This document shows, piece after piece, positions 27,935-53,734 of a stretch of 64,000 bases of DNA. The notes below the pieces were generated by a model. That model ran no database searches. It had not been told where the DNA came from and was given only the letters and a program-made list of their open reading frames with translations. Within the stretch, counting starts at the first letter, position 1; every line of letters begins with the position of its first letter. The translations under genes were made by a program, and so were the position numbers. Source of the DNA: Fimbriimonadaceae bacterium (GTDB lineage Bacteria > Armatimonadota > UBA10988); assembly GCA_020850355.1 (NCBI GenBank), contig JADZEX010000081.1, forward strand, positions 131,113 through 195,112, written 5' to 3'.

Positions 27935-28498
27935 TCAGGCGGTTCGCCGCTGCGCGGCCCACTCCTCGCGCCGGATCCGCATCAGGTGCAGGTCGTGGCA
28001 CTGCCCGCGGTGGTAGAACGCCTCGCGGCGCGTGCTGGCGACCCGCAGACCGGCCTTCTCGTAGACCCGCTGCGCGGCGAGGTTGGTGGTGAAGACCTCG
28101 AGTTCGACGCGCTGCAGGGCGAGGTCGTCGAACAGGAACTCCAGCAGCAGGCGCACCGCGGCGGTGCCGTGGCCCTGATTCCAGCAATCCCGCTCACCAA
28201 TCGCCAGGCCGATCGTCGCCCGTTGATTGGGGAGATCGAGGTAGTCGGTGCCGGCGGTGCCGATGGGCAGCCATTGCGCGTCGTGGCAGACCTCGACGAT
28301 GAACAGGCGGTTGCTGGGGTCGGCGATCTGGTCGGCGTACCAGTGCTGCTCCTCGGCCGCCGTGAGCGGCGCGAACAGCCCAAGGTTGCCGCGCACCACG
28401 GGGTCGCCGTACCAGCGCAAGAGGTGCGCCAGGTCGCTGGCCAGGGCGCGCCGCAGCCGCCGCGGGGCGGCCGTCAGAACGGTCCGTTCAGCGGCCAT
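27935..28498 (-). CDS. GNAT family N-acetyltransferase
   Basis: 187 aa. Acetyl-CoA binding region QGHGTAAVRLLLEFLFDDLALQRVELEV. Confidence 0.75.
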   Translation of the reverse strand: MAAERTVLTAAPRRLRRALASDLAHLLRWYGDPVVRGNLGLFAPLTAAEEQHWYADQIADPSNRLFIVEVCHDAQWLPIGTAGTDYLDLPNQRATIGLAIGERDCWNQGHGTAAVRLLLEFLFDDLALQRVELEVFTTNLAAQRVYEKAGLRVASTRREAFYHRGQCHDLHLMRIRREEWAAQRRTA

Positions 28499-30252
28499 CA
28501 GCGGCCCGCGAGGTAAGCGTCGGCATGTTGCTTCATCTGGTCCCACGGCCAACCGGCCGGGTCGGGTTTGCCCCGCAGGCCGCCGGCGAAGTCCTTGTGG
28601 TAGACCACGCCCTCCACGAAGGACTCTCGGGGGATGTGACGCAGCGGAATAGCCTGGCGACGACATATATCCGCCACCAGGCGCCCGACCGACCGAATCT
28701 GGCCGGCCGTGAAGTCCCAGCCGTTGGCGACGATCTCGATGCCGATGGTCTCGGAGTTGAAGTCGTAAATCGGCCCGGTGTTGCGCCACTGCCCGGTGCC
28801 GGCGTGGCGCGTGATGGTCTGCTCTTCGGCCAACTGCAAGACGGTGCCGGCGCGCAGCACCAGATAGTGCACGCCGATGGTGCTCGGCTCGGGCAGCACC
28901 TGCGCGCCGGGGGTGATGTCCTGGTAGAGCTTCGAGAGCAGCCCGTCGCTGGAGCTGGTCAGCGCGTTCAGCGAGCCGCCATCGCTCTGGGTGGCGGTGT
29001 GGTGCAGGACCACCCAGCGGGGCCAGCTCGGACGCTGCCAGCGCATCGTGCCGGGCCGCGTGTCGTGGATGGCACGGCCGTCCGGCCGCGGGCGCTGGCG
29101 CCCTGCGAAGGCCATCGCGGCGCTATCGAAAACCACGCCGCTGGGGCCGACATTGCGTCCGCGGCGGGTCACGCGGCAGGTCTTGCCGGCGACGTTGACG
29201 GCGGTGGTTTGGACCAGGTCGCGGTCGTCGATGCCAAAGCGGTCGGTGCGGCCGAGGCTGGTTGCCCAACTGCGGCCGTCGGGCGCGGCGACCGGGGCCG
29301 GCGCCAGCCAGTCGGGCGATGGCCGCAGCGGCACCCGGCTGTCGATGGTCGCCAGCAGCGTGTGCTCGCCGCTGGCCAGGGCGGTCTGCCAGAGCCCCGT
29401 CTGGCCCTCGCGCCGGGCCAGGTAGAGCGCCTGACCGTCGCGCCAGCCGACCAGCGACTCGGTCGGTCCGGCCAACGGCCAGCCCTTGACGACCTCGCCG
29501 TTGGGCCGCCGCTGCTGCGCCCAGGGGCCGTCGGGCTCGGCGGTCTGAATCCAGATGGTTTCGCCCGCCCAACTCGCGCCGAGCACCTGGCAGTCGGGCT
29601 GGGCCGGATAGGCGAAGGTCGGCGCGGCGGTGGGCTGGGCCGCTTGGAAGACCAGCAGTTGCTGCCCGAGGCGCGCGGCGACCAGGCCGTTCGGACCGGG
29701 CCAGACGCCGTCCAGGCCGGCCATCGTCACGACGCGCTGGGGGGCGCCGGCGGGCGGAAGCTGCCACAGACCGCTCGTCTCGCCCTGCGGCACGGTCACC
29801 CAGAGCAGGCCCGCGGCGTCCCAGGCGAAGCTCTGGCGCGTGCGCGGCGTGATGGCGCCGACCCGCAAGGGAGCGCTGAGCAGCCTGGCGTCGGCAGCCT
29901 GCCAGACGCCCACCGCGCCCTGGCCGTCGCTGCCGCCCTGCAAGTAGGCGATCCGCGTGCCATCAGGTGAGGCCTGCCCGCAGCCGAAAGCGCCAGGGCC
30001 GCCCCACAGCCGGGCCGCCGCGGTGCGCACGTCGATGGTGTAGAGCGGCCCGAGCGGGGCGGCGTTGAGGCGGTCATGGTGCGACTCGAGGTGCAGCCGC
30101 GGGCCGTCGCCCGACCAGACCGGCTGGCCCCCCGGCCCGAGCCAGCGCAGACTGGGCGCACCAGGGGTGTAGAGGTGGACGCCGGCGGTGCGCACGAGAG
30201 GTTCGCCCGCCAGCAGGCCGGCGCAGGTCAGCAGAACGACGAGGTTGCCCAA
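28498..30252 (-). CDS. secreted beta-propeller (TolB/WD40-like) protein fused to C-terminal N-acetylmuramoyl-L-alanine amidase (Amidase_2/PGRP) domain
   Basis: TTG start after GGAGGG. Signal peptide LGNLVVLLTCAGLLAG. Repeated W/G-rich blades. C-terminal LHHTAT...GVHYLV...IGIEIVANG amidase_2 motifs. Overlaps GNAT start by 1 nt (TGATG). Confidence 0.65.
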   Translation of the reverse strand: MGNLVVLLTCAGLLAGEPLVRTAGVHLYTPGAPSLRWLGPGGQPVWSGDGPRLHLESHHDRLNAAPLGPLYTIDVRTAAARLWGGPGAFGCGQASPDGTRIAYLQGGSDGQGAVGVWQAADARLLSAPLRVGAITPRTRQSFAWDAAGLLWVTVPQGETSGLWQLPPAGAPQRVVTMAGLDGVWPGPNGLVAARLGQQLLVFQAAQPTAAPTFAYPAQPDCQVLGASWAGETIWIQTAEPDGPWAQQRRPNGEVVKGWPLAGPTESLVGWRDGQALYLARREGQTGLWQTALASGEHTLLATIDSRVPLRPSPDWLAPAPVAAPDGRSWATSLGRTDRFGIDDRDLVQTTAVNVAGKTCRVTRRGRNVGPSGVVFDSAAMAFAGRQRPRPDGRAIHDTRPGTMRWQRPSWPRWVVLHHTATQSDGGSLNALTSSSDGLLSKLYQDITPGAQVLPEPSTIGVHYLVLRAGTVLQLAEEQTITRHAGTGQWRNTGPIYDFNSETIGIEIVANGWDFTAGQIRSVGRLVADICRRQAIPLRHIPRESFVEGVVYHKDFAGGLRGKPDPAGWPWDQMKQHADAYLAGR

Positions 30253-30477
30253 GGAGCCCTCCGCAGGCAGGATGCAGCAGCGGTCGGGTGGCGTCAAGGC
30301 GGGCGACGGGGGGCGCAGGCCCAACAGCAGACCCGACGAGGGCCCCAGTGAGCGCCATCCGCGCCACGGACGCAGCAGCTCCGAGCGTCCAGCTTGACGG
30401 CGCTCGCCACGACCTGCTACTCTCCAACTGCGTCGCCCAACCAGCCGAAGGGTTTGCCGAGCGGAGCCAGGCCAACA

Positions 30478-30909
30478 ATGCCAGCCAAGGAGTACCATCA
30501 GCTTCCAAGATGCCCATGCAAGAAGCTGCGGTACCGCTATGATCCTTGTGAGGGTCGAACGAAGCACAAGTGGCGTGAAGGTGCGGCGGGCTTTGCGCCT
30601 GTGGGCAAGTTCATTGTTGGCAAGTGTCCTTGCGGCATGTCCAATGCCGAGGCCGAGGCCATCCTCAACAGCGGGATGGGCGAGTATGACCCGGGTGACG
30701 AGCACCCAAAGAAGATCTACGCGGTGCATAATGGCGTTGTCTACATAGCTATGCGGAACAACGACGGCAACGCGTATCATGGCTATCCAGCAACTCGGCG
30801 TGATGTTGTCGGCAGCGCATACCGGTACGTGCTAGAAATGGCTGACCGCGACCAGTGTATGCAAGCCGCCAAAGCGTGGCTGAAGGAGCACCGCGGTGGC
30901 AACGGATAG
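30478..30909 (+). CDS. small Cys-rich hypothetical protein (2x CPC motifs; possible zinc ribbon / HNH-like core)
   Basis: 143 aa. Motifs PRCPCKK...C...GKCPCG then YAVHNGVVYIAMRNNDGNAYHGY. Low-GC codon usage. 14-nt overlap with the downstream gene. Confidence 0.55.
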   Translation: MPAKEYHQLPRCPCKKLRYRYDPCEGRTKHKWREGAAGFAPVGKFIVGKCPCGMSNAEAEAILNSGMGEYDPGDEHPKKIYAVHNGVVYIAMRNNDGNAYHGYPATRRDVVGSAYRYVLEMADRDQCMQAAKAWLKEHRGGNG

Positions 30910-32329
30910 TGGATTCTCCATAGACATTGACTTCAGTCAGGATGTTGATGCCGGATCCCGCCAGCGACCTTTGGACGGGGGCCTCGTCCTCAAGATTGGA
31001 CGGTGGTTGCCGTGGAATGAGCAGGATGAGCGGGGCCAGCCCGTTCCAGACCAAGACTGCTGGCGAAGTCTGCTTGAGTGGATGAGTGACGCCTGGTTGT
31101 ACCTTCGGCACGACACCACAGAACCGTTGCGGCTACTAGGCAAGCCACTGTCCAATAACCCCGCGCTCTGGTGGGATGAGGCTCTCGACCGCTGGGATAG
31201 TCCCGACTACGACTCGGACCGGGCCTCGAAAGAGGAAAGCGATCTAGTTGATTGGCTGAACAATCACGACATCTCGTGCGGTTTGCCCGAGAAGTGCGGT
31301 GCACGTGTAGTGTTTCTTCGGGTGGGTGCCCAGTGCATGGTAAGTTGCCCGGATGGGTCTGTGACGTTGGGGCTGGAAGAGGCCTTGACGGAGCTAACTC
31401 GGTGTGGGGATACCTTGGCCGAGAGGTTGCGGGGCTCGACGCTGCCGGCCGACCAGGCCCTTGTGGCACGATGGAAGAGCCGGGACAACACGTCAGTGGA
31501 GGGCCGCTTGGCGGCCTTCGGCGCCAACGTTCAGGTTCTTCGTGCGCTGAGGTCCAGCGAAGCCTTGGCGACATGGTCCCTCGAGCTGGATGCCGTCGAT
31601 CCCAATGCCAATCCTCTGCTGTTGGCGGCTCGGGCATGTCAAGATGAGCTGCCTACCGACATCCTGAGTAAGCTGCTGGCCCAGATCAGAGAGATCCGTG
31701 AGAGGCCCACCCCTGTGGTGGATGAGTTGGCTCGCAAGGTAACGGCAAGTCTGCGTCGATCCAGCCGTACCAAACCGTTCAGGCAGGGGTACATGGCGGC
31801 CGCGACCTTGCGTTCTCGGCTCGGTGCTGCAACTGGTGCAATCGATCCGGTCGAGCTGTTGGACCGTTGGAACGTAGCGGTGCAGCACCTCCAGCTTGGA
31901 ACGGAGGTCATTGATGCGGTGGCCTGCTGGGGAGGTGGCTACGGGCCGGTGATCCTAGTGAATGACGACGGTCGGCACGCTCAGGGTACTAACGGTCTGC
32001 GTGCAACACTCGCGCACGAGATCGGCCACCTCATGGTGGACCGCTGGGATTGCGTGCCTGTTTGCGATGTGAGCGGGCTCCGCTCTCGTCTGCCCCACGA
32101 GCAACGCGCCAATGCCTTCGCTGCTGAGCTGCTCGTGCCGCAGGACGAGATCAAGCGACGACTCATACCGGGGTGCCAGGTGACTGCGGTCGTCACCGAC
32201 CTGGCTGCTGAGTACGGCGCGAGTCGGCAGCTCGTGGCTTGGCACGCCACCAACTCGGCGACCGAACTGGATTCCCGCGCCAAGGGCGCGCTCCGCGATC
32301 TCTGTGACGAGGACGATACCTGGAGTTGA
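30896..32329 (+). CDS. ImmA/IrrE-family (COG2856, DUF955) zinc metallopeptidase-domain protein with about 270-aa N-terminal domain of unknown function
   Basis: GTG start 7 nt after AAGGAG. C-terminal motifs ATLAHEIGHLMVD (HExxH) and ANAFAAELLVP, diagnostic of ImmA/IrrE peptidases. Confidence 0.75.
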   Translation: MATDSGFSIDIDFSQDVDAGSRQRPLDGGLVLKIGRWLPWNEQDERGQPVPDQDCWRSLLEWMSDAWLYLRHDTTEPLRLLGKPLSNNPALWWDEALDRWDSPDYDSDRASKEESDLVDWLNNHDISCGLPEKCGARVVFLRVGAQCMVSCPDGSVTLGLEEALTELTRCGDTLAERLRGSTLPADQALVARWKSRDNTSVEGRLAAFGANVQVLRALRSSEALATWSLELDAVDPNANPLLLAARACQDELPTDILSKLLAQIREIRERPTPVVDELARKVTASLRRSSRTKPFRQGYMAAATLRSRLGAATGAIDPVELLDRWNVAVQHLQLGTEVIDAVACWGGGYGPVILVNDDGRHAQGTNGLRATLAHEIGHLMVDRWDCVPVCDVSGLRSRLPHEQRANAFAAELLVPQDEIKRRLIPGCQVTAVVTDLAAEYGASRQLVAWHATNSATELDSRAKGALRDLCDEDDTWS

Positions 32330-41906: not shown

Positions 41907-44900
41907 TCAACGCTCCTCGGCCAACGCTCCCGGCGGCGTCACCGTGAAGCGGATGGTCTCCTCGGCGGTGCCGAAGTAGCCGCCCCAGCCAACCTCCAGT
42001 TGGATCACCGCGGCCTGGTTGACCTGTTCGGGGCCGGTGCCGTCGCCGAACTTCTGGAACCGCTCCCAGGGGATCTGGCTGACCCGCCAGCCGGGGTGGT
42101 TCAGCAGGCGACCGGCGGGCGCCAGGTAGCGCTGGCCGTCGGCGGTGGTCAGGAAGCAGTACAGCGTTGCTGCCGAGGTCTGGCCGGCCGGCACGCCGGT
42201 CTCGATCCGCAGCGCCGCGGTGCGGCTCAGGTCGAGCGGGGTGGGGTACTTGAAGATCGCGAACTGGAACGTGTCGACCGCGCTCTTGGTGATCCGGCCC
42301 TGCAGCTCCCAGGCCGCGCGCCCATCGGGGAGGGTGACCGCCTGCACCGGCGCGGCTTGCACGAACTGCCCGCCGCCTGAGGTCGGGGCGACGGTCGGCA
42401 GGGACACGGGCTGACCCAGCAACAGCAGCCCCGGTGCGGGCTGCTGGCGGGTCCGGGCCGTCGCGCTGGCGTAGCGCAGGATCACGCCGCGGTAGGGCGG
42501 CAGGTCCAAGGTCACCGGGCCGGCGGGCACGGTGCGGCGGGTGCCGTCGACCGGGTTGCAGAGCTCGCCAGGTCCGCTGCCGGCCAGAGTTAGCTCACCG
42601 CGCCACGGGGCGTTGCTGTCGTTGATCACGAAGTAGACGTCGTGCTCGTCGATCCGCCGGTGCGTCGTCCTGAGCGGCGCGCCTCGGGGGACCGCCACGT
42701 CGCGGGTCAGCAGCGCGTCGAGCGCCGTCGGCAGCAGCGACTCGCTGCCGCTGGGCAGCCACACCGCCCGGGCGCCATGCGGGCCGCTGACGATGCCGGC
42801 CTGCTCGCTGGGCGGCCCCAGGAGCTGCGTCGCGAGCGCCTGCGCCGCCGGGCTGGGGAACTCGCTGGCGCTGTTGCGCGGCCGCTTGCCGAGCACGATG
42901 ATGGCCCCGCCGGCCTGCCAGAACTGCGCCACGCGCTCCCACGCAGCGGCCGGCAGGGTCTCCGCGCCGGGCAGCAGCAGCACCTGCCAGGCGAGTTGCC
43001 GATGCACCAGCCGCGGGCCGTCAACGTGGCTGTCGACCAGCGCCTTGGCGTCCACGATGGTGGCGTCGCGACCCGACTTGAAGATGCTCTCGAGGCTGCT
43101 GTTGTAGGCCTGCTCGATGGCCAGCGAATCGGGATCGGGGCTGCCGACGCCCTTGGCCGGCGCGGTGTGCGGCCAGAGGCTGTTGACGGGGTAGAGCACC
43201 GCCAGGTCGGCCACCTGCACGCCGCCACGCAGCGCTGTGCCGATTCGGCCGACGTACTGGTTCAGCGCCTCCATCTGCCCGGCGTCGAGACCGGCGAAGC
43301 TGTAGTAGCTGGTGAAGGTGTTGATCCCACCGACGGCCTGCCGGTTGATGGTGCCGCAGATGTCGTCGAAGGTGACCTGCACCGGGGGACGTTGGTCGCC
43401 GGGCGGCCGGTAACGCTGCGCGTGGTCGGACGTCTCACTCATCGTCAGCAGCCGGCCCTCCAGCTCTGCGACGCTGCTGATAGTCCTCGCAATCGCCCAG
43501 GGCACCTGGCTGGGCAGGCTGGTGAGGCAGTCAATACTCGGCGCGTCAAGCCCGCGGACGCAGGCCATCAAGTCGCCGTACAACTGCACGTGGCCACGAA
43601 AGCTCTCTTCCATCAGCAGGTGCCCGCCGGCTGGCACACCTAGCTCGCGACAGCGGCGCTGAATCTGGCCGAAGTAGTTCTCGCTGACCAGCTCGGCGAT
43701 GGTCTGCCAGAAGTCGTACCGCACCTTCGCCGCCGGCGGGCCGCCGTCGGCCACCACGGCCGCAAGCTGCGGCCCCAGGTCGTAGCCGCGACGGCGCCGG
43801 AACTCGGGAGCCAGGTTCTCCGACCAGGGCAGCACGGCGTACGGCATCGGCCGCAGAAAGCAGCTCATCAAGCTCGGCTCGTCGGTGAAGGTCGCCTTGA
43901 AGTGCGGCCGCAAGTCGCCCAGCTCGCGCGCGTAGGCGTCGTGAGTCAGCTCGATGAAACGCTTCGTCGGCTCCGGCAGCAGCAGATTCGTGTAGGGCTG
44001 GTGCACGAAGACGTTCAGCGAGGCGTGGGTGCCCTCGTAGATCTTGTCACGGGTCACCAGGGCCACCTGCCAGCGGCCCGCGCCCGGCGGAGTCCAGCGC
44101 AGCTTGCCGTCCGCCAGGTGGCCGCGCAGGTCGACGCCCCGGCTCAGGTCCTCGCCGGGCCAGGCCTGCGCCAACTGCAGCTTGCCCGGCGGTACCGCCA
44201 GCTCAACCGCCTCGCCCTGGCTGCTGGCGCGAGCCACCAGCAGACCCTCCGCCTCCCACTCGGGATGGCCCTTGAGGACCTGCATCCCGGCCGTGCCGGA
44301 GGGGTAGCCCATCTCGTCGTACAGCCAGACCGTCATCTGCAGCCGGCTGGCCGCGGCCAACACGCGGCGCAGTTGCTCCCAGTGCGGCTTGCTCTGTAGA
44401 TACTGCTCGTTCCACGGCCCGACATTCGTGGCGAACCCGCCGAAGCCCAGGGCGCGGAGCTCGTTGACCGCCTCGGCTTCGGCCTCGGCGCTGAGCGGCC
44501 AGGAGTGCATGATCTTGAGGATCCGCGTGCTGCCAGGCGGGTCGGCGAAGCGCTCTTCGAAAGGACGATCCTCGGATGGCAAGGGAGTGACCACGAGACT
44601 CTCCTCGGGCAACAGGCTCAGCCGCGGGCCGTCGATGCCGCCGGGGCCGCCGCCGTCGGTCACCTCGATGGCGATCACGTTCGGCGCACCAAAGCGCACC
44701 AGCTCCGCCGGCAACGGGTAGCGCCGGACCGTCTGCACGTCCTTCACCGCGCCGACCTGTTGCCCGTTGAAGAAGGTCCGATCCTGGTCGTCCACCCGTC
44801 CGAGCAACAACACCAGCGGCTTGCCTCGCCAGGCCTCCGGGATCACGACGCTACGGCGATACCAGGCGACGCCGTCGTAGTCGGTCCACGGCATCTTGCC

Positions 44901-45128
44901 TTTCGGCTGCGGCGGCTGCCCCGGCCGCGGCTCGGTGACGCCCTGCGGCTCCCACGATCCCGGCACCCGCAGCTCGCGCCAGCCAGCGTCGTCAAACTCC
45001 GGCCGCGCCCAACCAGCCGCCAGCCCGGCCGCCGTCGGATCGGTCGCAAAGCGCCAGGCGCCATTGAGATTGCCCAGCCGCGGCTCCAACGGCGCGGCGG
45101 TCAGCAGAGCCAGCCAGAGGGTCAACAT
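41907..45128 (-). CDS. large secreted glycoside hydrolase (GH2-type N-terminal sugar-binding domain + TIM-barrel)
   Basis: 1073 aa. Signal peptide MLTLWLALLTAAP. N-terminal galactose-binding-like domain (WRFATDP...GSWEPQG...DYDGVAWYRR) as in GH2/beta-galactosidases. Confidence 0.6.
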   Translation of the reverse strand: MLTLWLALLTAAPLEPRLGNLNGAWRFATDPTAAGLAAGWARPEFDDAGWRELRVPGSWEPQGVTEPRPGQPPQPKGKMPWTDYDGVAWYRRSVVIPEAWRGKPLVLLLGRVDDQDRTFFNGQQVGAVKDVQTVRRYPLPAELVRFGAPNVIAIEVTDGGGPGGIDGPRLSLLPEESLVVTPLPSEDRPFEERFADPPGSTRILKIMHSWPLSAEAEAEAVNELRALGFGGFATNVGPWNEQYLQSKPHWEQLRRVLAAASRLQMTVWLYDEMGYPSGTAGMQVLKGHPEWEAEGLLVARASSQGEAVELAVPPGKLQLAQAWPGEDLSRGVDLRGHLADGKLRWTPPGAGRWQVALVTRDKIYEGTHASLNVFVHQPYTNLLLPEPTKRFIELTHDAYARELGDLRPHFKATFTDEPSLMSCFLRPMPYAVLPWSENLAPEFRRRRGYDLGPQLAAVVADGGPPAAKVRYDFWQTIAELVSENYFGQIQRRCRELGVPAGGHLLMEESFRGHVQLYGDLMACVRGLDAPSIDCLTSLPSQVPWAIARTISSVAELEGRLLTMSETSDHAQRYRPPGDQRPPVQVTFDDICGTINRQAVGGINTFTSYYSFAGLDAGQMEALNQYVGRIGTALRGGVQVADLAVLYPVNSLWPHTAPAKGVGSPDPDSLAIEQAYNSSLESIFKSGRDATIVDAKALVDSHVDGPRLVHRQLAWQVLLLPGAETLPAAAWERVAQFWQAGGAIIVLGKRPRNSASEFPSPAAQALATQLLGPPSEQAGIVSGPHGARAVWLPSGSESLLPTALDALLTRDVAVPRGAPLRTTHRRIDEHDVYFVINDSNAPWRGELTLAGSGPGELCNPVDGTRRTVPAGPVTLDLPPYRGVILRYASATARTRQQPAPGLLLLGQPVSLPTVAPTSGGGQFVQAAPVQAVTLPDGRAAWELQGRITKSAVDTFQFAIFKYPTPLDLSRTAALRIETGVPAGQTSAATLYCFLTTADGQRYLAPAGRLLNHPGWRVSQIPWERFQKFGDGTGPEQVNQAAVIQLEVGWGGYFGTAEETIRFTVTPPGALAEER

Positions 45129-45269
45129 GCCGTGCTCCCAAAGGGGTCAGGACCATTTTTCGGGGCCGCCGCCGCGGACGGTCTGGCGCGGCGGCGTGGG
45201 TCATGCGCTGTGGCGACGCGACTTCGGGCCGCAGTGGGCCATTCCTGCCGCGCTATCGGCGGCCGGCGC

Positions 45270-45485
45270 TGGCCCGCCGGACACGGCGTCCGCGCCAACT
45301 GCGTCTCCCCCGGCCCGGTGTTGACCCGCCCCGAGATGGCCAACATGACCACTCGCCTCGGCCGCGCCGCCGCGCCCGACGAGATCGTCACGATGATCCC
45401 CTACCTCTGCTCCGACGACGACGCCTTCGTCACTGGCCAGAACTTCGTGATCGACGGCGGACGGAGCGTTGGGGCGATGGAGTAG
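45270..45485 (+). pseudogene. 3' fragment of a short-chain dehydrogenase/reductase (SDR) gene
   Basis: Encodes only the SDR C-terminus (GVRANCVSPGPVLTRPEM...PDEIVTMIPYLCSDDDAFVTGQNFVIDGG). The N-terminal about 190 aa including the Rossmann TGxxxGxG are absent upstream. Confidence 0.55.
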
Positions 45486-45648: not shown

Positions 45649-47067
45649 ATGAGGACAGTCAAGCTCAAGGACCAGGGCGTCGGCCTACCCGAGACTCTGA
45701 AGGTGCTCGACGACCCGCGAGTTGGCGGCGAAGCCGAGGTGTTCTTCACCGCCGATGAGCGTTACGCAGTCAAGGCTTACACCAAGCCCGCCGCCGACCG
45801 CGAGCAGTCGCTACGGCAGGTTCGCAAACTCTTTGGCGACCTGTCGCACGAACAGGCGGAGTTCATCGTGCCGCCGCTGGCCCTGCTCCAGAGCATTGAC
45901 GGTCAGCCGCGCGTCGGGTTTGTGATGCGCCGAGTCCCGCCCAGCTACCAGAACCTCAGTGCGGTGATGCACAGCCCAACCGAGGCCGCATCCCAGTTCA
46001 GGAAACACCGTTCATGGGCCGACTACCTGCGTCTGGCACGCAACGTCGCCTCCTGCCTCAGCGTGCTGCACTGCAAGGGCTGTTCGCACGGGGACATCCA
46101 CCCACGCAACTTCATGGTGGACCTGCCACAGGGCAAAGCCGTGATGCTGGAGGTCGATGGCGTCATCGTACCGGGCTTCCTGAAGCCCCAGGTCGACGGA
46201 ATGCGCGGCTACATGGCCCCGGAAGTAGTCCGTGGTGAGGCGCAGCCGTCGAAGCAGACTGACCTTCACAGCCTGGCGGTGCTGCTGCTGCACACCCTGT
46301 TGTTTCGGAATGTGATGAACCCGCTGGTTGAGTTCTCGACCGACGCTGAAGAGAGCGAGCGGCTCGGCTGGGGCCGCGAGGCGGTCTTCAGCGAGCATCC
46401 CCAGATCCGCACTAACCGCCCGCGCCACCTTGGGACACCGCTGTACCGAAAAGGCGCGCTGAGCTGCCGGGCCCTGGGGCCACGGTTGGAGAAGTTGGCG
46501 CATCGGGCGTTGGTTGAGGGCCTGCACGATCCAGCCAGCCGGCCCCAGGCCGACGAGTGGGTGGAAGCGCTGACTGCGGCCCGCGATGAGCTCTACTACT
46601 GCGCAGTGTGCCATCAGCAGCCAATCTACCCGTACTGGGAACAGCCCCTTGCGCGCCGCTCCTGTGCATTCTGCGGCAATCGTCTGCAGGGGGCGCCAGC
46701 GGTTCTGGAGTTGTACGAGGAGCGGCAGCGGGGTTCCTTCCACCCAATCGGCCGGCCGGTCGTGCTTGCGGCGGGGTTCAAGGTGTTCCCGGACCTCGCC
46801 AACCGCCGCGGTCCCTTGCGCTGGGAGCCGCGTAGCGACCAGCAGCCGGTAGCCGAGTGTCGTGCCAGGCCAGGCTCGGCCGAGCTGGAACTGGTCAATC
46901 GGAGCACCACCGAGTGGGCGGTGCGCCGGACAGATGGCTCGCGCGGCGAGGCCGTCAAGCCGGGCCAGGCGGTGCCGCTGGCTTCGGGTCTCGGAGTGCA
47001 GTTGGGCCCAGACGGGCGCTTGCTGTGGGTGCAGGAAGCGCCCACTCCGACCGTGCAGAGGAGGTAG
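45649..47067 (+). CDS. atypical Ser/Thr protein kinase with C-terminal zinc ribbon and beta-rich domain (TerY-P-type kinase)
   Basis: ATG start. Kinase motifs ERYAVKAY (beta3 Lys), HGDIHPRNFMVD (catalytic loop), GYMAPE. Then CAVCHQQ...CAFCGN zinc ribbon. Confidence 0.75.
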   Translation: MRTVKLKDQGVGLPETLKVLDDPRVGGEAEVFFTADERYAVKAYTKPAADREQSLRQVRKLFGDLSHEQAEFIVPPLALLQSIDGQPRVGFVMRRVPPSYQNLSAVMHSPTEAASQFRKHRSWADYLRLARNVASCLSVLHCKGCSHGDIHPRNFMVDLPQGKAVMLEVDGVIVPGFLKPQVDGMRGYMAPEVVRGEAQPSKQTDLHSLAVLLLHTLLFRNVMNPLVEFSTDAEESERLGWGREAVFSEHPQIRTNRPRHLGTPLYRKGALSCRALGPRLEKLAHRALVEGLHDPASRPQADEWVEALTAARDELYYCAVCHQQPIYPYWEQPLARRSCAFCGNRLQGAPAVLELYEERQRGSFHPIGRPVVLAAGFKVFPDLANRRGPLRWEPRSDQQPVAECRARPGSAELELVNRSTTEWAVRRTDGSRGEAVKPGQAVPLASGLGVQLGPDGRLLWVQEAPTPTVQRR

Positions 47068-47071
47068 GCTC

Positions 47072-47761
47072 GTGTCTGACTTTGACATTCAGGTGGCGGT
47101 GGGTGAGGGTGTCCGGCGTCTGCCGGTCTATCTGTTGCTGGACTGCAGCGGCAGCATGCAGGGCGCGCCGATCGAGGCGGTGCGCCACGGCGTTGAGCTG
47201 TTCGCCCGCGAGGTGCTGGGCGATGAGTTCGCCGCTCAGACCGTGCATGTCGCGGTGATCCTGTTCGGTGGCGAGGCTCGCATGGTTACCAGTGGATTGG
47301 TGCCCATGGACCAGTTCCAGCCACCTGCGCTGGAAGCTCGCGGCGGCACTCCGCTGGGCGGGGCCCTGCGCCTGCTTAACGAGTCCCTGACCCGCGACCT
47401 GCGTCCCAACGTGCCGGGGCAGCCGAAGGGCGACTGGAAGCCGATGGCCTTCATCATGACCGACGGCGCCGCGACGGACGACTGGCGCGGGCCCCGCGAG
47501 GCCATCATCAACCGGCAGACGGGCCGTCTGCTGAACATCTGCACGGTCGGTTGCGGCCCCGGTGTCGATGAAGCGTTACTCAAGGAGATTGCCGTCGGAC
47601 CGGCCTTCAAGATGGATGACAGCGAGGTCTCGTTCAAGCAGTTCTTCCAGTGGGTCACCGCCAGTGTGCGGGCCGTCAGCGTGTCGCTGAGCCAGCCCAG
47701 CGGGCCGGGCGGCCCGGTCGACCTGCCGCAGCCGCCGCCCGTGTTGCAGTACATCGACTGA
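47072..47761 (+). CDS. vWA domain protein (TerY-like)
   Basis: GTG start 4 nt after the kinase stop. MIDAS motif LLLDCSGSM...TPLGGAL...FIMTDGAATD. Confidence 0.8.
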   Translation: MSDFDIQVAVGEGVRRLPVYLLLDCSGSMQGAPIEAVRHGVELFAREVLGDEFAAQTVHVAVILFGGEARMVTSGLVPMDQFQPPALEARGGTPLGGALRLLNESLTRDLRPNVPGQPKGDWKPMAFIMTDGAATDDWRGPREAIINRQTGRLLNICTVGCGPGVDEALLKEIAVGPAFKMDDSEVSFKQFFQWVTASVRAVSVSLSQPSGPGGPVDLPQPPPVLQYID

Positions 47762-47784
47762 GGCCGCTGCCCGCGGAGGTGACC

Positions 47785-48813
47785 ATGGAAGCGCGCTGGG
47801 TGGAGGGTGACACGCTGTTGGCCAGTGCCGGCAGCCGGCACCCGGATCAGGTCTGGCTGCACCAGGCCCACGGGCCGTGGCAGATCCTCGGAGCCAGCGC
47901 CGTTGGGCAGGCCCATCGTCGTGACGACACCCCGCGCGACGATGCGCTCTGCGCTGGTGGCGCCGGGCCGTGGTTGGTGGCCGCCGTCGCGGACGGCGCT
48001 GGCTCGGCGGCCCTGTCGCGGTTCGGGGCCACCACCGCCGTGCGGACCGCCGTCGAAGTGCTACTCGACAGTCTGCCCATGCCGCCGGGCGACGAGAACC
48101 AGGTCGCCGGGCTGCCCGACTGCCTGACCGTGGCTCGCCAGCGTAACGTCCGCTATGACGCCGACCAGCCGACCGAGGTGTTACGGGCGACCTTCCAGCA
48201 GGTCCACCGGCAGGTTGGCCGGGCGGCCGAAGCCATGCAGGCGCCAGCGTCCAAGCTGCACTGCACGCTGCTGGTGGCGGCCCTGCAAGTCGAGAGTGGG
48301 CAACTGCTGGTGGGACAGGTCGGTGACGGCGCGATCGTCTACCATGACCCGGCCAATGGCGGCGGACGCCTGCTCCTACAACCTCCGAGTAGTAGCCAGG
48401 CTGGCGAGACCTACTTCATCACGCAGCCCGATTGGCCCGCGCGGTTCGACGCGCAGGCCATCGAGGCGGTTGCTGCGGGCGGGATCCTCCTGCTCACCGA
48501 TGGCATCGCCGACGATGTCACCTGTCCGCCGCCCGATGATGTGCTGACCCGGTTCAGCGGCCAGATGACCGCCCAGTTGCTGCGCCCGCTACCGCCCGCG
48601 GAGCGGGCGGCTGCCCTGCTGCGATGGGTGGACGGCTACCGCGCCTCGGGTTCGTTCGACGACCGAACCATGCTGGCACTGCTCCGCGCGGCCCCACCTG
48701 TGCCGTTCCCAGCGCTTGTAGATGGCGCGCAAGCGGATCCCGGTGCGGAATCAGCGCCACAGCCGACTTGCGATCAGCCAGCGGACGACCAGCAACGGGA
48801 TGGGGTTGACTGA
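47785..48813 (+). CDS. PP2C-family protein serine/threonine phosphatase
   Basis: Motifs AVADGAGS, VGDGAI and LLTDGIADD spaced as in bacterial PP2C (SpoIIE/PPM) phosphatases. Confidence 0.75.
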   Translation: MEARWVEGDTLLASAGSRHPDQVWLHQAHGPWQILGASAVGQAHRRDDTPRDDALCAGGAGPWLVAAVADGAGSAALSRFGATTAVRTAVEVLLDSLPMPPGDENQVAGLPDCLTVARQRNVRYDADQPTEVLRATFQQVHRQVGRAAEAMQAPASKLHCTLLVAALQVESGQLLVGQVGDGAIVYHDPANGGGRLLLQPPSSSQAGETYFITQPDWPARFDAQAIEAVAAGGILLLTDGIADDVTCPPPDDVLTRFSGQMTAQLLRPLPPAERAAALLRWVDGYRASGSFDDRTMLALLRAAPPVPFPALVDGAQADPGAESAPQPTCDQPADDQQRDGVD

Positions 48814-48816
48814 GCT

Positions 48817-51462
48817 ATGGCGACGTCGCCGTTGACGCCAGAGCAGGCCGCCGCGCTCTCTTCAGCGCTCGCCTGGCTAGCTGAGAACTCGGTCGGCAGC
48901 ACCGAGTTGACGGTCGACAGGGCCGAGATCGGACTGCTGGCGCAAGGCCTGGATCCCGAACCGACGCTGATTCAGGAGATGCAGCGCTGTTTCAGTCTGC
49001 TGCGGCGGGCGGCCGGATCTGCTGATCCGGACCTCCACCAGATGGTGCAACGGGCGCTGCAGGACCGGGGCGCCTCTGAGGCTGCCGCCTTGCTGGCAGT
49101 GGACCGAGTGGCCGCACATCCTTCGCCGCCGGCAGCCACTGCGGCGACGGCGCAACCCGCCGGATTGCAGTGTGCGCCCATCACGGTGGACCGCCCGGCG
49201 ATCGTCTGGGCGGCGCTCGCTCCCAAGACCGGCGCGGAACACCAGCTCCGAGTCAGCGGAGGCCCGGGCCAGGTGGTTGCCTTTCCGGAGGACCGGATCG
49301 CAGTGGCGCCGGTGGAGTTTGGGCCCCAGCCGACGACGCTCACGGTCATGCTGACCGGCGGCCTGCCAGGCGAACTGCTGTGGGGGCACCTCTCGCTGAC
49401 AAGTCGTCAGGAAGAGGTCCAGGTTGAGATCTCCGCTCATTGGCCAGCCCCTCGCCTCTCGCCGAGCAGCCCGTCGGAGCACAACGAGGAGCGACCCTCG
49501 GCGTCGCCGCTGCGGGTGGCCAAGGAGGAGCGTCGGCGAAAGGCCCGACAGCAAGACGACGCGCCGGCCGAGCCCGCAACTCCCGCCACCGGTTACCCGC
49601 CCGACGGCCCCGCACCGCCCGGCTGGCCGTCTTACATCCCCTGGCCGCCGGCCCGGCTGCCGGAGCTGCGGTTCCGGGTCTGTGAGATCGACGCCATGCC
49701 GCAGGTGCTGATCCCGGCCGGGGAGTTCCTGATGGGAAGCCCAGCGAGCGAGGCAGGGCGGTTCGACGACGAAGGGCCGCAGAAGCGCGTGTACCTGAAC
49801 GGGTACTGGCTGGACCTGCACGCGGTGACGAACAGGCAATACGCGCAGTTCGCCGAGGCGACACGGCGGACCAATGCAGAGTGGGAGCAGTGGAACCACG
49901 ACACCTACCGGCGGCATCCAGCTACTTACGCGAGTTGGGAGGAGGCGACGGCGTATGCGGCGTGGGCGGGGCGGGAGCTGCCGACGGAAGCACAGTGGGA
50001 AAGAGGGGGGCGGGGCGGCACGACTACCGCGTACCCGTGGGGGAAGCGGGGGGAACTTGGGCGAGCGAATGGGGACTGGGACGCAGACCGTGTCAGCTCG
50101 CACGCAAACGCAGTGAAGTACTGTCAGGAGGTTGGCCAGCACCCCCCGAACGGTTTCGGGCTCTACGACATGATCGGCAACGTATGGGAGTGGTGCCGCG
50201 ATTGCTACGATGCCGGCTGGTACTCCAAGATGCCCAGGGCCGAGCCACAGAATGCCGCGAACGACGGCTCTCGCGTGTACCGGGGTGGCTCTTGGGGCAG
50301 CGGACCGCGGTACCTGAGGGTGGCGGGCCGCTTCAGAAACTCGCCGGACTTCCGGGGCAGCAACCTGGGCTTCCGCTGCGCCGCGCCCGGACCTCCCGGA
50401 GCCCCAGCCAGCGCGCCATCGCCCGTGTCAGTGGCGGCGGTCCTGTTCCCGAAGGCGCGAACGGCCCCAAGCTCGGCAGCGACGCCGCCTGGCCCGGCCA
50501 AGGCGGCATCGGGCCCCTCCGCTGCGGCAACACCGCAGCCGTCGCCGACGCCAGCCAGAGTGGTCGCACCACAGCCAGCGCCTTCCACGCCGCCGCCGCA
50601 GCCGCCGGTCGCGCTGACCGAGGGCCACCCCGACGGCCCGGCACCGCCCGGCTGGCCGTCTTACATCCCCTGGCCGCCCGCACGGCTGCCGGAGCTGCGG
50701 TTCCGGGTCTGTGAGATCGACGCCATGCCGCAGGTGCGGATCCCGGCGGGGGAGTTCCTCATGGGGAGCCCGGAGAGCGAGGCGGGGCGGGTCAGCAACG
50801 AGGGCCCGCCTCAGCGGGTTCACTTGAGCGCGTACTGGCTCGACCTGCACGAGGTTACGAACGAACAGTGGCGTCGGTTCCTGACGGCAAGCCGCCGCAG
50901 CAGCATGTGGGGGCGCCTATCGGCGCTGTGGCGAACCAACACCCAGTGGGCACAGTGGGACCAGGATACAGGGCCTCGGCACCCGGCGGTCTTCATCAAC
51001 TGGGAGGAGGCCAGAGCGTATGCGCTGTGGGCCGGTCGGGAGCTGCCGACGGAGGCGCAATGGGAGATGGCGGCGAGAGCTGGAACGACAACCACCTACC
51101 CCTGGGGAGAACAGCCTAGCTGTGGTCGGGCAAACGGGAACTGGGAAGGTGATCGAAGCTACTCGTACCAGAGCGCGGTGACGCACTGCTCGTGGGTGGG
51201 AGCATATGACCCGAACGGGTTTGGAGTCTATGATGCGATTGGCAATGTGTGGGAGTGGTGCCGGGACTCCTATGGTGACAAATGGTCCCGCCAGTTGGCG
51301 CCGGCGGATAGCTTCATTGCAGTACCGAGCGGTGAGCGCGTAATACGCGGGGGCTCGTGGATCAGCTCCGGCGGTCACCTGCGAGTGGCGGATCGTCTCG
51401 GGATTGCACCAGCCGGTCGGTTCGGTCATCTCGGCTTCCGCTGCGCATCGCCGGCGCGTTGA
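48817..51462 (+). CDS. protein with N-terminal unknown domain and two tandem FGE-sulfatase (SUMF1/formylglycine-generating-enzyme-like) domains
   Basis: Each repeat has IPAGEFLMGSP...WEWC...RGGSW...LGFRCA hallmark motifs. ATG overlaps the PP2C stop region (4-nt spacer). Confidence 0.75.
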   Translation: MATSPLTPEQAAALSSALAWLAENSVGSTELTVDRAEIGLLAQGLDPEPTLIQEMQRCFSLLRRAAGSADPDLHQMVQRALQDRGASEAAALLAVDRVAAHPSPPAATAATAQPAGLQCAPITVDRPAIVWAALAPKTGAEHQLRVSGGPGQVVAFPEDRIAVAPVEFGPQPTTLTVMLTGGLPGELLWGHLSLTSRQEEVQVEISAHWPAPRLSPSSPSEHNEERPSASPLRVAKEERRRKARQQDDAPAEPATPATGYPPDGPAPPGWPSYIPWPPARLPELRFRVCEIDAMPQVLIPAGEFLMGSPASEAGRFDDEGPQKRVYLNGYWLDLHAVTNRQYAQFAEATRRTNAEWEQWNHDTYRRHPATYASWEEATAYAAWAGRELPTEAQWERGGRGGTTTAYPWGKRGELGRANGDWDADRVSSHANAVKYCQEVGQHPPNGFGLYDMIGNVWEWCRDCYDAGWYSKMPRAEPQNAANDGSRVYRGGSWGSGPRYLRVAGRFRNSPDFRGSNLGFRCAAPGPPGAPASAPSPVSVAAVLFPKARTAPSSAATPPGPAKAASGPSAAATPQPSPTPARVVAPQPAPSTPPPQPPVALTEGHPDGPAPPGWPSYIPWPPARLPELRFRVCEIDAMPQVRIPAGEFLMGSPESEAGRVSNEGPPQRVHLSAYWLDLHEVTNEQWRRFLTASRRSSMWGRLSALWRTNTQWAQWDQDTGPRHPAVFINWEEARAYALWAGRELPTEAQWEMAARAGTTTTYPWGEQPSCGRANGNWEGDRSYSYQSAVTHCSWVGAYDPNGFGVYDAIGNVWEWCRDSYGDKWSRQLAPADSFIAVPSGERVIRGGSWISSGGHLRVADRLGIAPAGRFGHLGFRCASPAR
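49601..49761 (+). repeat. intragenic direct repeat copy 1 (about 160 bp, about 93% identical to copy 2)
   Basis: ccgacggccccgcaccgcccggctggccgtcttacatcccctggccgcc...gagatcgacgccatgccgcaggtg recurs at 50630. Confidence 0.85.
50630..50790 (+). repeat. intragenic direct repeat copy 2
   Basis: Same linker + start of FGE domain (DGPAPPGWPSYIPWPPARLPELRFRVCEIDAMPQV). Nucleotide identity far higher than the rest of the two FGE domains. Confidence 0.85.
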
Positions 51463-51536: not shown

Positions 51537-52697
51537 ATGCCGCACCCCTGCCGCATTGGCATTCTGATGGACACCACGGACCTCGGCCTTGGCCTGCATG
51601 GGATGCATGTCGCGTTTCGGGGTCTGCCGGGGGTTGAGGTGGTCGGGCTGGCCGACTCCAATCCGCGCGGACTGGAGGAGCGGTTGGCGGTCAGCGGGGC
51701 GCGGCGGGTGTATCCGAGCCTGGCGGCGCTGTTGGCCGACGCGGCGCCGGAGGTGATGGTGCTGGCGAACCGCAGCCCGGACGACCACCTGGCCCAGATC
51801 CAGGCCTGTCTCGAGGCGGGGTGCCACCTCTACTGCGAGAAGCCGCTGGCGGCGCGGCTGACCGAGGTGGATCAGATCATCGCGTTGGCCGAGCGGCACG
51901 GCCGGCAGATCGCGCTGGCGCATCCTTGCCGGCAGGCGCCGGTCTGGCGGACGTTGCGGCGGATGGTCGCCGACGGGGCGATCGGGCGGCCGTTGACGGT
52001 CTACGGGCGGGGCAAGGAGGACCACCGCGGCGGCGGGGAGGACCTGATTGTGCTGGGCACGCACGTCCTGGACTTTCAGGCGGCGCTGTGTGGCCAACCG
52101 CGGCAGGTCTATGCCGAGGTGACGCAGGACGGGCGCCCGATTGTCGCGAGCGACCGGTTGCCGACGGTGGAGCCGGTCGGGCCGGTGGCCGGTGACGCGA
52201 TCTTCGCGACGTTGCAGTTCGACGGCCAGGTGCGCGGGTTGTTTGAGAGCCGGCGCGGGTTGTCGACCTGGGGCCGCGGGCTGGCGCGGATGGGGATCAC
52301 GGTCTGCGGCACGGCCGGGTCGCTGACGTTGCGCTTCTGGGATGGTCCGCCGCCGGCAGCGACGTTGCGCTGGAGTCAGGTCGCGGGCGCTCCTGAGGAT
52401 GACCTGAGCTACCAGGAGGTGCCGGTGGTCGAGGAGCGGGTGATCCCGGGCGCGGAGCCGCTCGACTACGGTCTGCTCGGCCGCGAGAACGTGCCGCAGG
52501 CAGCGCTCTTCATGGAAGCTGGCCGGTTTGCGGCGTGGGACCTGCTGGAGGCCATCGGCGCCGGCCGGCCGCCCGAGTGCAGTGCGGTCGACGCGCGCCG
52601 GACGCAGGAGATGCTGCAGGGGATCTACGCCGCGGCGCTGGCCGGCCGGCCGGTGGCGCTGCCGCTGGTCGAGCGGCGGCATCCGCTGGAGGTGTAG
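51537..52697 (+). CDS. Gfo/Idh/MocA family oxidoreductase
   Basis: N-terminal Rossmann IGILMDTTDLGLG...VVGLADSN and EKPLA motif. Confidence 0.8.
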   Translation: MPHPCRIGILMDTTDLGLGLHGMHVAFRGLPGVEVVGLADSNPRGLEERLAVSGARRVYPSLAALLADAAPEVMVLANRSPDDHLAQIQACLEAGCHLYCEKPLAARLTEVDQIIALAERHGRQIALAHPCRQAPVWRTLRRMVADGAIGRPLTVYGRGKEDHRGGGEDLIVLGTHVLDFQAALCGQPRQVYAEVTQDGRPIVASDRLPTVEPVGPVAGDAIFATLQFDGQVRGLFESRRGLSTWGRGLARMGITVCGTAGSLTLRFWDGPPPAATLRWSQVAGAPEDDLSYQEVPVVEERVIPGAEPLDYGLLGRENVPQAALFMEAGRFAAWDLLEAIGAGRPPECSAVDARRTQEMLQGIYAAALAGRPVALPLVERRHPLEV

Positions 52698-52711
52698 CCG
52701 GCGCGCCGAAC

Positions 52712-53734
52712 TCAGGGGGTGGGCGGGCCCAAGCGGCGGTCGAACGCGGCCAGGAAGGCGGCGACGGCCGGTGCGGCGAGATCGGTGAGGCGGATCAGCC
52801 GCAGGCTGCTGGCGGGGTGGGCGGCGAGGTGAGCCAGCGCGGCCTGGACCAGGATGGTGGCAGACTGCTCCAGCGGGAACCCGCCGCGGCCGGCACCGAG
52901 GGCGGGCAGCGACAGCGAGTCGAAGCCCTCGCGCGCGGCGCGGTCGAGCGCCGCGCCGGCGACGGCGGCGAGGGCGGCAGGTGCCGTCGGTTGGCCGCCC
53001 TGCCAGACCGGCCCGACGACGTGGATCACCGCGCGGCAGGGCAGCGCGCCGGCGCCGGTCAGAGCCACCTCGCCGGCGGCCAGCGGGCCGTGCTGGCGCA
53101 TCCAGGCGTCGCTCTCCTGCTGCACCACGGCGCCCCCGCGCCGCACGATGGCGCCGGCGACGCCCCCGCCGTGGGCCAGCCGGGCGTTGGCGGCGTTGAC
53201 GATGGCGGCGGTGGTCTCGCTGGTCAGATCGCCGTGGGCGACCTCCAGCCGCCGGCCGTCGGGCAGCGTGACGCGGCGCCGCAGGGTGGCCTGGAGGCTC
53301 TCCCAGGGGGCCAGCCCCAGATGCACCGCCAGCCGCTGCCGGCAGCCAGCCGGGTCGGCCGTCAGGTCGGCCTCCCACAGCTCCAGCAGCCGCCAGCCCC
53401 AGCGCGTCGCGAGGCGCTGCAGGGCGGCGTCCTGGACCCGTTTGCGGCGCTGGCTGTGGTTCAGGCGGTCGGGCGGGCAGGTCGCCGGGTCGCCATGGTA
53501 CCAGGTGCCCTGGACCTCGATCCAGAGCCGCGCCGCGGGCACTGCGAAGTCGACCGCCAGGGTCGGCGTCAGGGGATACTGCGCCACCGCGACGATGTCC
53601 AGCTCGGCCAGCCAGCCGGCGACGGTGCGCTCGGGCGCGGTGTCGCGCCACGGCGCGGCCGGTCGTGGCGGCGGCGTTCGTTGGCGTAAGCGGCGTTGCA
53701 GGTCGCGCAGACTGTCGTGCGGGCGGCGGATCAC
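52712..53734 (-). CDS. DUF559 (Vsr-like endonuclease fold) - Macro domain fusion protein
   Basis: GTG after GGGAGG. N-terminal DUF559-like region (AVDFAVPAARLWIEVQGTWYHG...QRRKRVQDAALQRLATRWGWRLLELWEADL). C-terminal Macro signature IVNAANARLAHGGGVAGAI...GEVALTGAGALPCRAVIHVVGP. Confidence 0.7.
   Translation of the reverse strand: MIRRPHDSLRDLQRRLRQRTPPPRPAAPWRDTAPERTVAGWLAELDIVAVAQYPLTPTLAVDFAVPAARLWIEVQGTWYHGDPATCPPDRLNHSQRRKRVQDAALQRLATRWGWRLLELWEADLTADPAGCRQRLAVHLGLAPWESLQATLRRRVTLPDGRRLEVAHGDLTSETTAAIVNAANARLAHGGGVAGAIVRRGGAVVQQESDAWMRQHGPLAAGEVALTGAGALPCRAVIHVVGPVWQGGQPTAPAALAAVAGAALDRAAREGFDSLSLPALGAGRGGFPLEQSATILVQAALAHLAAHPASSLRLIRLTDLAAPAVAAFLAAFDRRLGPPTP

Follow-up and report, generated by a model that had tools for sequence, protein, structure and literature searches.

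A TerY-P-type kinase, vWA and PP2C cassette of a Fimbriimonadaceae bacterium and a family of partner proteins linked to it through a shared N-terminal domain

The window analysed here is a stretch of 64,000 nucleotides from a Fimbriimonadaceae bacterium (contig JADZEX010000081.1 of assembly GCA_020850355.1), and all positions below refer to it. Within its high-GC DNA (G+C fraction ~0.70-0.75), four co-oriented open reading frames (ORFs) occupy positions 45649-51462 of the plus strand and encode a kinase, a von Willebrand factor A (vWA) protein, a PP2C phosphatase and an 881-aa protein (Table 1). All four genes lie where a preliminary description of this DNA had placed them, and Pfam finds Pkinase, VWA, PP2C_2 and two FGE-sulfatase (FGE, formylglycine-generating enzyme) domains in their products. 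The kinase and vWA genes are separated by 4 nt (47068-47071), the vWA and PP2C genes by 23 nt, and the PP2C and 881-aa genes by 3 nt (48814-48816), so that the 4-nt spacer previously assigned to the position before the FGE gene is in fact the one between kinase and vWA. The kinase-vWA-PP2C order reported at the same time is real and recurs in the related loci L001, L012 and L014; vWA-PP2C-kinase is the order in most relatives. Inspection of the four protein sequences revealed no hydrophobic segment and no signal-like N-terminus, and all four proteins are therefore presumed to be cytoplasmic. A scan for promoters and terminators gave nothing above shuffled expectation. The principal observation of this work concerns the first 212 residues of the fourth protein, referred to as the N-domain, which are specifically and repeatedly linked to this clade of triads.

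Table 1. Positions of the cassette genes, of the two parts of the fourth protein and of the adjoining gene remnant in the window
Feature	Coordinates	Strand	Evidence and remarks
SDR (short-chain dehydrogenase/reductase) C-terminal remnant (pseudogene fragment; neighbour, outside the system)	45222..45485	+	adh_short_C2 positions 146-234/236, E 2.3e-11; GC3 (G+C fraction at third codon positions) 0.90
Hanks-type Ser/Thr kinase, 472 aa	45649..47067 (ATG to TAG)	+	Pkinase 8.4e-10
TerY-like vWA protein, 229 aa	47072..47761 (GTG to TGA)	+	VWA 1.1e-9; GAGGAGG ribosome-binding site upstream
PP2C-family Ser/Thr phosphatase, 342 aa	47785..48813 (ATG to TGA)	+	PP2C_2 3e-35; GGAGG upstream
Fourth gene, whole, 881 aa	48817..51462 (ATG start)	+	Two FGE-sulfatase stretches, Pfam 1.2e-112
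N-domain (adaptor), aa 1-212 of fourth protein	48817..49452	+	5-helix bundle, disordered linker, PapD/MSP/ASH-like beta-sandwich
Variable C-terminal part of fourth protein	49453..51462	+	Pro/Ser/Ala-rich linkers and two tandem FGE-sulfatase modules, aa ~286-525 and ~629-880

The kinase matches the NCBI protein IT204_23265 with 100% identity, and its best homologue outside the source metagenome-assembled genome shares 52% identity with it. In a 20-sequence alignment the glycine-rich loop (GGE[GA]), K42, the HxD...N residues H147/D149/N154 and the APE motif are invariant or nearly so, as are the four cysteines (C318/C321/C339/C342) of a C-terminal CxxC...CxxC zinc ribbon, and the same alignment shows that DG (D170-G171) takes the place of DFG. 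An all-beta domain follows the zinc ribbon at residues ~351-463, with strands running from 351 to 463 in the AlphaFold2 model (pLDDT, the predicted local distance difference test, 89). Foldseek searches with the whole kinase model returned kinase domains exclusively, with matches to Hanks kinases, PknB included; in a profile search the zinc-ribbon/beta domain matched solved structures weakly, the best natural match being 6htj, a Zn-ribbon nucleic-acid-binding protein (E 0.06). The metal-ion-dependent adhesion site (MIDAS) of the vWA protein, which had been described as intact in a TerY-like protein, is indeed complete, comprising D-C-S-G-S (DxSxS), the T of GGTPLG and the D of MTDG. Besides, the PP2C motifs VADGAGS (DGxG), GDG, TDG and DDRT were all found. 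The kinase, the phosphatase and the vWA protein form a complete triad of the TerY-P type, and judged by these residues their active sites appear intact.

The N-domain came to light through pairwise comparisons of the fourth protein with the proteins of related loci. In BLASTP, its residues ~1-210 matched a 269-aa protein of L001 (E 2e-20) and the N-termini of a 904-aa protein from Streptomyces avermitilis (L002, E 2e-13) and of a 913-aa protein of L003 (E 1e-13), while the 269-aa protein of L001 also matched the L002 protein (E 1e-22). A word-indexed homology search with the N-domain gave no match; the family was found by an exhaustive HMMER search with residues 1-212, which returned ~150 representatives of 50%-identity clusters, 55 of them at E<=1e-10. 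The members range from ~100 to 1788 aa in length, and the N-domain sits almost always at residues ~2-200. No model in Pfam, NCBIfam or PADLOC covers it. The AlphaFold2 prediction from a 20-sequence alignment (pLDDT 91.5) consists of five helices between residues 8 and 99, a disordered linker at ~100-119 and an eight-strand sandwich at 120-209 that is PapD/MSP/ASH-like; invariant positions in this alignment include E54, R84, G148, G151, P165 and F168-G169, and W58 is nearly invariant. Several family members carry a vWA domain of the triad type fused to the N-domain, in either order (P0111, P0179, P0082, P0052, P0146 and the ORF at 7333-8130 of L042), and in P0111 the arrangement is vWA, N-domain and beta-helix. 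Since such natural fusions exist, the Rosetta-stone argument suggests that the N-domain and the vWA protein work in one complex.

The genomic association of N-domain and triad was assessed by scanning the kinase alignment over one genome per species, which yielded 30 loci, and by searching the ORFs of all six frames in these loci for kinase, vWA, PP2C, N-domain and FGE with hidden Markov models (HMMs) built for this analysis. The loci span Armatimonadota, Streptomyces, Oscillatoria/Microcoleus, Chloroflexota, Vulcanimicrobiota, Verrucomicrobia, Atribacterota and one Methanocellaceae archaeon. In the window, the N-domain HMM identifies 48817-51462, directly after the PP2C gene, with E 1.4e-64. 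The triad has an N-domain gene as its neighbour in the window, L001-L003, L007, L009, L010, L013, L014 and L016-L023, that is, in 17/17 assessable kinase-anchored loci outside one Atribacterota-type clade (window included); the loci L004, L005, L006, L011, L012, L015, L024, L025, L029 and L033 were left out of this count on account of contig ends. Altogether an N-domain gene adjoins the triad in 19 distinct loci besides the window. The Atribacterota-type loci (L026-L028, L030-L032 and L034, from Caldatribacterium/Profundicultor and relatives) have adequate flanking sequence and hold triads in the order V-P-K (K, kinase; V, vWA; P, PP2C; N, N-domain gene), yet the 10 kb around them contain no N-domain gene, and in a neighbour-joining tree the kinases with and without a partner form separate clades. 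In Bacterium HR10 (L008, 10001-11407) a solitary kinase is interrupted into ORFs of 52 and 415 aa; genes for vWA, PP2C and N-domain are all absent from the surrounding 10 kb, and this homologue is probably a decaying orphan.

The linkage holds across different gene orders. K-V-P-N is found in the window, L001 and L014, and V-P-K-N, N-V-P-K and V-P-N-K bring the orders to four in all; two to three tandem N-domain paralogs occur in L020, L022, L023, L038 and L040. A reverse test was also performed with three family representatives picked without reference to the kinase (P0044, P0118 and P0041), and 3/3 proved to lie beside triad genes. The locus of P0044, an N-domain protein with FGE, reads V-P-N(FGE)-N-N(FGE)-x-K, where x is a 260-aa ORF without a match; that of P0118, which combines N-domain and WD40, reads V-P-K-N-N; and P0041 (1788 aa, with WD40 and beta-helix) is followed by an ORF in which part of an N-domain is fused to a vWA domain. 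Chance adjacency of the FGE gene to the triad was ruled out by this repeated linkage.

What follows the N-domain differs from one partner to the next. Beta_helix is the commonest C-terminal domain in the family (18 of the 97 members scanned with Pfam, and ~25 of 150 by our own probe) and WD40 the second (~15/97), with FGE present in 7/150. Among the linked partners, Pfam assigns Beta_helix to those of ten loci, FGE to those of the window, L009 and L038/L039, WD40 to those of L040 and L042, and CHAT and SH3 to those of L020, while the partners of L001, L007, L014 and L022 carry no further domain. In the L002 and L003 partners the C-terminal part is made up of right-handed beta-helix repeats (Beta_helix 9e-109 and 3e-66). 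According to the kinase tree, the FGE partner arose or was swapped in at least twice, once in the window and once in L009/L038. The partner C-terminal module is thus interchangeable, and because the N-domain is shared while the C-terminus varies, it is the N-domain that constitutes the conserved fourth member, FGE being one of the modules attached to it. The preliminary description had proposed to check whether the FGE protein is a conserved companion of the triad, and the answer is divided: the N-domain has been conserved together with the triad, the FGE part being one option among several. The same description knew of no published four-gene version with a dual-FGE component. A partner with N-domain and FGE is not unique to the window and recurs in L009, L038/L039 and 6 other family representatives. 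The partner also appears to evolve faster than the triad. In three pairs of related cassettes the triad is better preserved than the partner; between L009 and L038 the triad proteins share 76-83% identity, the N-domain 70% and the FGE module 49%, with the orthology of the paralogs uncertain.

A few of the relatives are found in neighbourhoods that merit a separate mention. In L001 (1-7937; ENA ERZ25039523 contig_96452) genes of a contractile injection system (CIS_tube, Phage_GPD/base_V and GPW_gp25), together with those for an FHA protein and an 858-aa FHA-kinase, immediately precede the K-V-P-N cassette, and an ankyrin-repeat protein comes after the stand-alone N-domain gene. In L020 (4578-8111 and 11424-12578) the triad is flanked by two N-domain proteins, one of 1177 aa with a CHAT (caspase-like) protease and the other with a bacterial SH3 domain; the CHAT protein is the only case seen of an obvious effector-type enzyme fused to the adaptor. 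L038 (8001-12716; L039 is alike) has three tandem N-domain paralogs, two of them with FGE and one with an unassigned C-terminus, together with a 260-aa ORF, all between PP2C and kinase; PIN, TumE and an intein-laden ribonucleotide reductase are encoded nearby.

How does this triad relate to known ones? A TerY-P triad has been defined by the combination of a vWA protein and a PP2C with a Ser/Thr kinase that ends in a zinc ribbon (PMC11090510; PMC4978471, summarising Anantharaman, Iyer & Aravind 2012). The window has all three features, namely a vWA protein with MIDAS, a linked PP2C and a zinc-ribbon kinase, and its triad is therefore a TerY-P triad in the sense of Anantharaman 2012. A tblastn search of plasmids with the kinase led to pPNAP04 of Polaromonas naphthalenivorans, whose ter cluster runs VWA - TerD - VWA - TerY-C - PP2C - kinase beside genes for aldolase, StiP, HAD, phosphoribosyltransferase, ATP-grasp and TerD proteins. 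The three window proteins align over their full length with their pPNAP04 counterparts. The vWA protein is 37% identical to a pPNAP04 vWA protein (E 1e-41) and shares 36% identity with the TerY-C protein; the kinases share 27% identity (E 2e-40) over residues 26-462, zinc ribbon and beta domain included, and the PP2C proteins 29% (E 5e-13). The likeness to a TerY-P triad drawn in the preliminary description is hence genuine, given such homology to the triad of a ter cluster. As a separate observation, ~2200 enterobacterial plasmids encode a kinase ~27% identical to that of the window over 81% of its length and annotated as 'lipopolysaccharide kinase InaA family'; in Enterobacter kobei pMCR10_SCLZS19 (L044, 8986-10485) such a kinase is flanked by IS1, with no vWA or PP2C neighbour listed in a gene table that is itself incomplete.

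Compared with the TerY-P triads of ter clusters and DNA-processing islands, the window thus has the same three tightly linked proteins, but differs from them in several respects. Linkage to ter genes or DNA-processing modules is frequent there, though non-obligatory, whereas ter genes are absent from the window (a tblastn search for TerD gave no match); it also lacks McrBC, helicase, nuclease and WXG/FtsK partners, and it has a kinase-first order and a dedicated fourth protein with the N-domain. In the literature TerY-P figures as a phospho-switch that senses metal, and TerY-P-like modules figure as anti-phage systems that stand alone (PMC11090510; PMC7699616). The TerY-P system of Gao et al. 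2020 (TerY/PP2C/STK_OB in PADLOC) follows the same three-domain logic in a stand-alone cassette and furnishes the only experimentally supported role for such triads, which is anti-phage (PMC7699616; PMC11090510); its kinase, however, has an OB fold where the window kinase has a zinc ribbon (PMC11090510), and a fourth component is not described there. Another homologous trio is the yegL-pphC(yegK)-yegI locus of Escherichia coli, whose kinase and phosphatase have been proven active in biochemical work (bioRxiv 10.1101/819920, 10.1101/303594). The window proteins share 26% identity with YegI, 28% with PphC and 32% with YegL, but YegI is a 648-aa membrane protein with another C-terminal half, and no N-domain partner is present at that locus.

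A parallel to the exchange of modules is found in the vWA-centred 'ternary' systems and GTPase conflict systems of multicellular prokaryotes (Kaur, Burroughs, Iyer & Aravind 2020, PMC7159879), where FGE ('FGS'), WD40 and other superstructure-forming modules are interchangeable binding or effector domains on a constant adaptor. That paper also describes a trio of PP2C, vWA and a kinase with zinc ribbon and beta-rich domain as an accessory of GAP1-N2 systems in actinobacteria, and FGE ('FGS') domains as binding or 'neutralizing' modules of conflict systems. In contrast to these systems, the window has no NTPase core of the MoxR, STAND or GTPase type and no diversity-generating retroelement (DGR), and its constant part is the helical and PapD-like N-domain, of which the available part of PMC7159879 makes no mention. 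Taking these comparisons together with the linkage data, we lean slightly towards a model in which the cassette as a whole is a four-component relative of the TerY-P triad that would act as a sensor-coupled phospho-switch.

The most serious competitor of this model, which we nonetheless regard as unlikely, is housekeeping signalling for envelope or polysaccharide metabolism, in which the kinase and PP2C would regulate a carbohydrate-binding scaffold (beta-helix or FGE/GldK-like) in concert with neighbouring glycoside hydrolases. The surroundings of the cassette lend it some weight: the flanks encode a GH106/GH2-like glycosidase (41907-45128, minus strand), a GFO/IDH/MocA oxidoreductase (51537-52697, plus strand), a GH123 glycosidase and sugar-phosphate isomerase-like proteins. 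A PAS histidine kinase is encoded there as well. In addition, beta-helix (NosD/pectate-lyase-like) and FGE (GldK/PorK-like) folds are frequently glycan-binding, and the yegI/pphC/yegL triad of E. coli has no known defence role. However, the four proteins have neither signal peptides nor transmembrane segments, and the flanking genes are kept with the cassette in no other locus. The nearest relative of the flanking glycosidase (in L043, 73% identity) shares no other gene with the window, the GFO-family genes of the two loci being 23% identical. Swaps of WD40, CHAT and SH3 modules and tandem partners would moreover be unusual for a fixed metabolic regulator.

The patchy phyletic distribution and the deviant GC3 speak against the housekeeping explanation as well, and they bear on the origin of the cassette. 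GC3 is 0.79-0.85 in the cassette genes and 0.87-0.93 in neighbouring genes. The truncated SDR pseudogene noted earlier next to the cassette is real, as just the final 40% of an SDR is left in the frame that ends at 45485, 163 nt upstream of the kinase start. Its GC3 is host-like, no direct or inverted repeats of >= 10 nt flank the cassette, and the nearest available relative shows no synteny beyond the glycosidase gene; no support was found for the cassette as the cause of the truncation. The earlier idea of an acquired accessory module is retained in its other half: composition, and a distribution from Armatimonadota to a Methanocellaceae archaeon, make a horizontal origin of the cassette plausible. 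Two further places in the window were recorded in passing. At 30394-32329 (plus strand), with 28498-30780 on the minus strand, a low-GC patch (0.63 vs ~0.72) carries two overlapping ORFs, one of 171 aa without a Pfam match and one of 477 aa in which a Peptidase_M78/IrrE-like domain is found (HEIGH motif, 6.7e-8). Next to them a protein of 760 aa that ends in an Amidase_2 domain is encoded, and the patch at 30394-32329 could represent a small foreign insert. The GFO-family gene is separated from the next gene on the minus strand by ~1 kb of very GC-rich DNA (52700-53730, GC 0.756) that contains only overlapping long ORFs in several frames, none of which passes the GC3 filter.

It could also be argued that in the 881-aa protein we have a catalytically active member of the FGE/EgtB/PvdO superfamily (formylglycine generation, sulfoxide synthase-like or similar) whose activity is controlled by phosphorylation through the triad, an explanation to which we accord very little probability. 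The matches themselves are strong, with two copies of the FGE fold (PF03781, 1.2e-112), and the closest solved relatives are true FGEs (E 2e-38 to the T. curvata FGE 6s07). Sub-threshold NCBIfam similarity to PvdO, EgtB and SenA points in the same direction. Nevertheless, the Cu-binding catalytic cysteine pair, the C-terminal CxxxxC motif of true FGE, is absent from both modules. In module 1 the catalytic Cys stretch GGSFLCHESYCNRYR of 6s07 aligns to 'GGSWGSGPRY---LR', with a Ser and a gap at the Cys positions, and in module 2 the equivalent stretch reads GGSWISSGGHLR, likewise without Cys. All NCBIfam scores (GldK, PvdO, EgtB and SenA) are far below the family cut-offs, Pfam finds no DinB-like iron domain of the EgtB type, and beta-helix or WD40 repeats occupy the same position in sister cassettes. 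An active FGE enzyme was accordingly rejected for want of the catalytic cysteines, and with these missing and the NCBIfam scores sub-threshold, the modules of the window are read as non-catalytic binders of the C-type-lectin fold.

The two modules have arisen by an internal duplication (49600-49833 / 50629-50862, 88% nucleotide identity) and are 63% identical as protein, identity being ~90% in the first 60 residues and falling to 40-47% in the final third. That they are targets of a DGR, and the partner a hypermutated receptor, is an idea with next to nothing in its favour beyond this divergent C-terminal third and the fact that FGE/C-type-lectin domains are classical DGR targets and DGR-linked in vWA ternary systems (PMC7159879), for the 64-kb window holds no template repeat (the two modules, with no other copy of either, are the sole repeats of the region), the mismatches between them lack adenine bias and no reverse transcriptase was found among the neighbours scanned, so that no sign of a retroelement is seen and the reading was dropped.

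We return to the sensor-coupled phospho-switch and to how it might operate. The N-domain would dock the fourth protein onto the vWA/kinase core, and the C-terminal module would serve as a ligand-binding recognition unit, represented here by two cytoplasmic FGE/C-type-lectin-like domains without catalytic cysteines. Ligand binding would alter the state of assembly, and the kinase would then become active through clustering and trans-autophosphorylation, like other kinases of the Hanks type. Second-order kinetics have been described for the activation of YegI, and Hanks kinases including YegI activate via intermolecular autophosphorylation (bioRxiv 10.1101/819920). PP2C would keep the system off and reset it. 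The output may be phosphorylation of the partner's own Ser/Thr/Pro-rich linkers at aa 100-119 and 210-285, or of cellular or invader targets; that these linkers are candidate phospho-sites is speculation on our part.

With regard to biological function, three lines suggest a role in conflict or defence: TerY-P-like triads are proven anti-phage systems, FGE, WD40 and beta-helix modules occur in conflict systems, and the partners swap modules and form tandem paralogs. The most likely role of the cassette would be surveillance of an invader or stress signal, rather than sulfatase maturation or housekeeping signalling. That the phospho-switch specifically has an anti-invader role is possible, at somewhat less than even odds in our estimation. 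We would put forward yet more tentatively, and with real doubt, the broader proposal of a widespread four-component immune-like system, in which the TerY-P triad would be the signalling core and the N-domain proteins exchangeable pattern-recognition receptors that trigger the kinase upon binding of invader molecules. These receptors, of beta-helix, WD40, FGE/C-type-lectin or SH3 type, at times two or three in tandem and at times joined to the vWA protein or to a CHAT protease, would each dock by way of the constant helical and PapD-like adaptor.

Several observations count against the phospho-switch and a role in defence, and they were weighed in these estimates. The PADLOC run proposed in the preliminary description did not recognise the cassette: among the TerY-P models, STK_OB reaches E 0.047 (10.5 bits), and the vWA and PP2C proteins match no PADLOC model even at E<=10. 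Among the proteins scanned, no known defence gene or integrase flanks the cassette, and there is no flanking tRNA either; the neighbours are glycosidases and oxidoreductases, and no relatives of the cassette were found in phage records or viral contigs. The window cassette contains no recognisable effector (nuclease, protease or pore), and its sequence does not separate sensor, substrate and effector as the role of the partner. Co-occurrence was sampled in ~30 genomes and a few metagenome contigs, which does not amount to a census.

The triad itself, the kinase/PP2C/vWA trio in the company of GTPase systems and the presence of FGE domains in conflict systems are already known. What is new is the N-domain family, its obligate linkage to one TerY-P clade and the vWA fusions, none of which was found described in the literature searched. 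The abstract of the 2012 Ter study by Anantharaman and colleagues reportedly does not mention such a partner either. With ~150 clusters at 50% identity and no Pfam model, the N-domain defines a new protein domain family that is useful for annotation and for catalogues of defence systems. TerY-P triads are common and phage protection by them has been shown, and the partner family provides concrete hypotheses on the input side of the switch. If the receptor proposal is true, the N-domain proteins would supply the missing 'sensor' of TerY-P-type defence.

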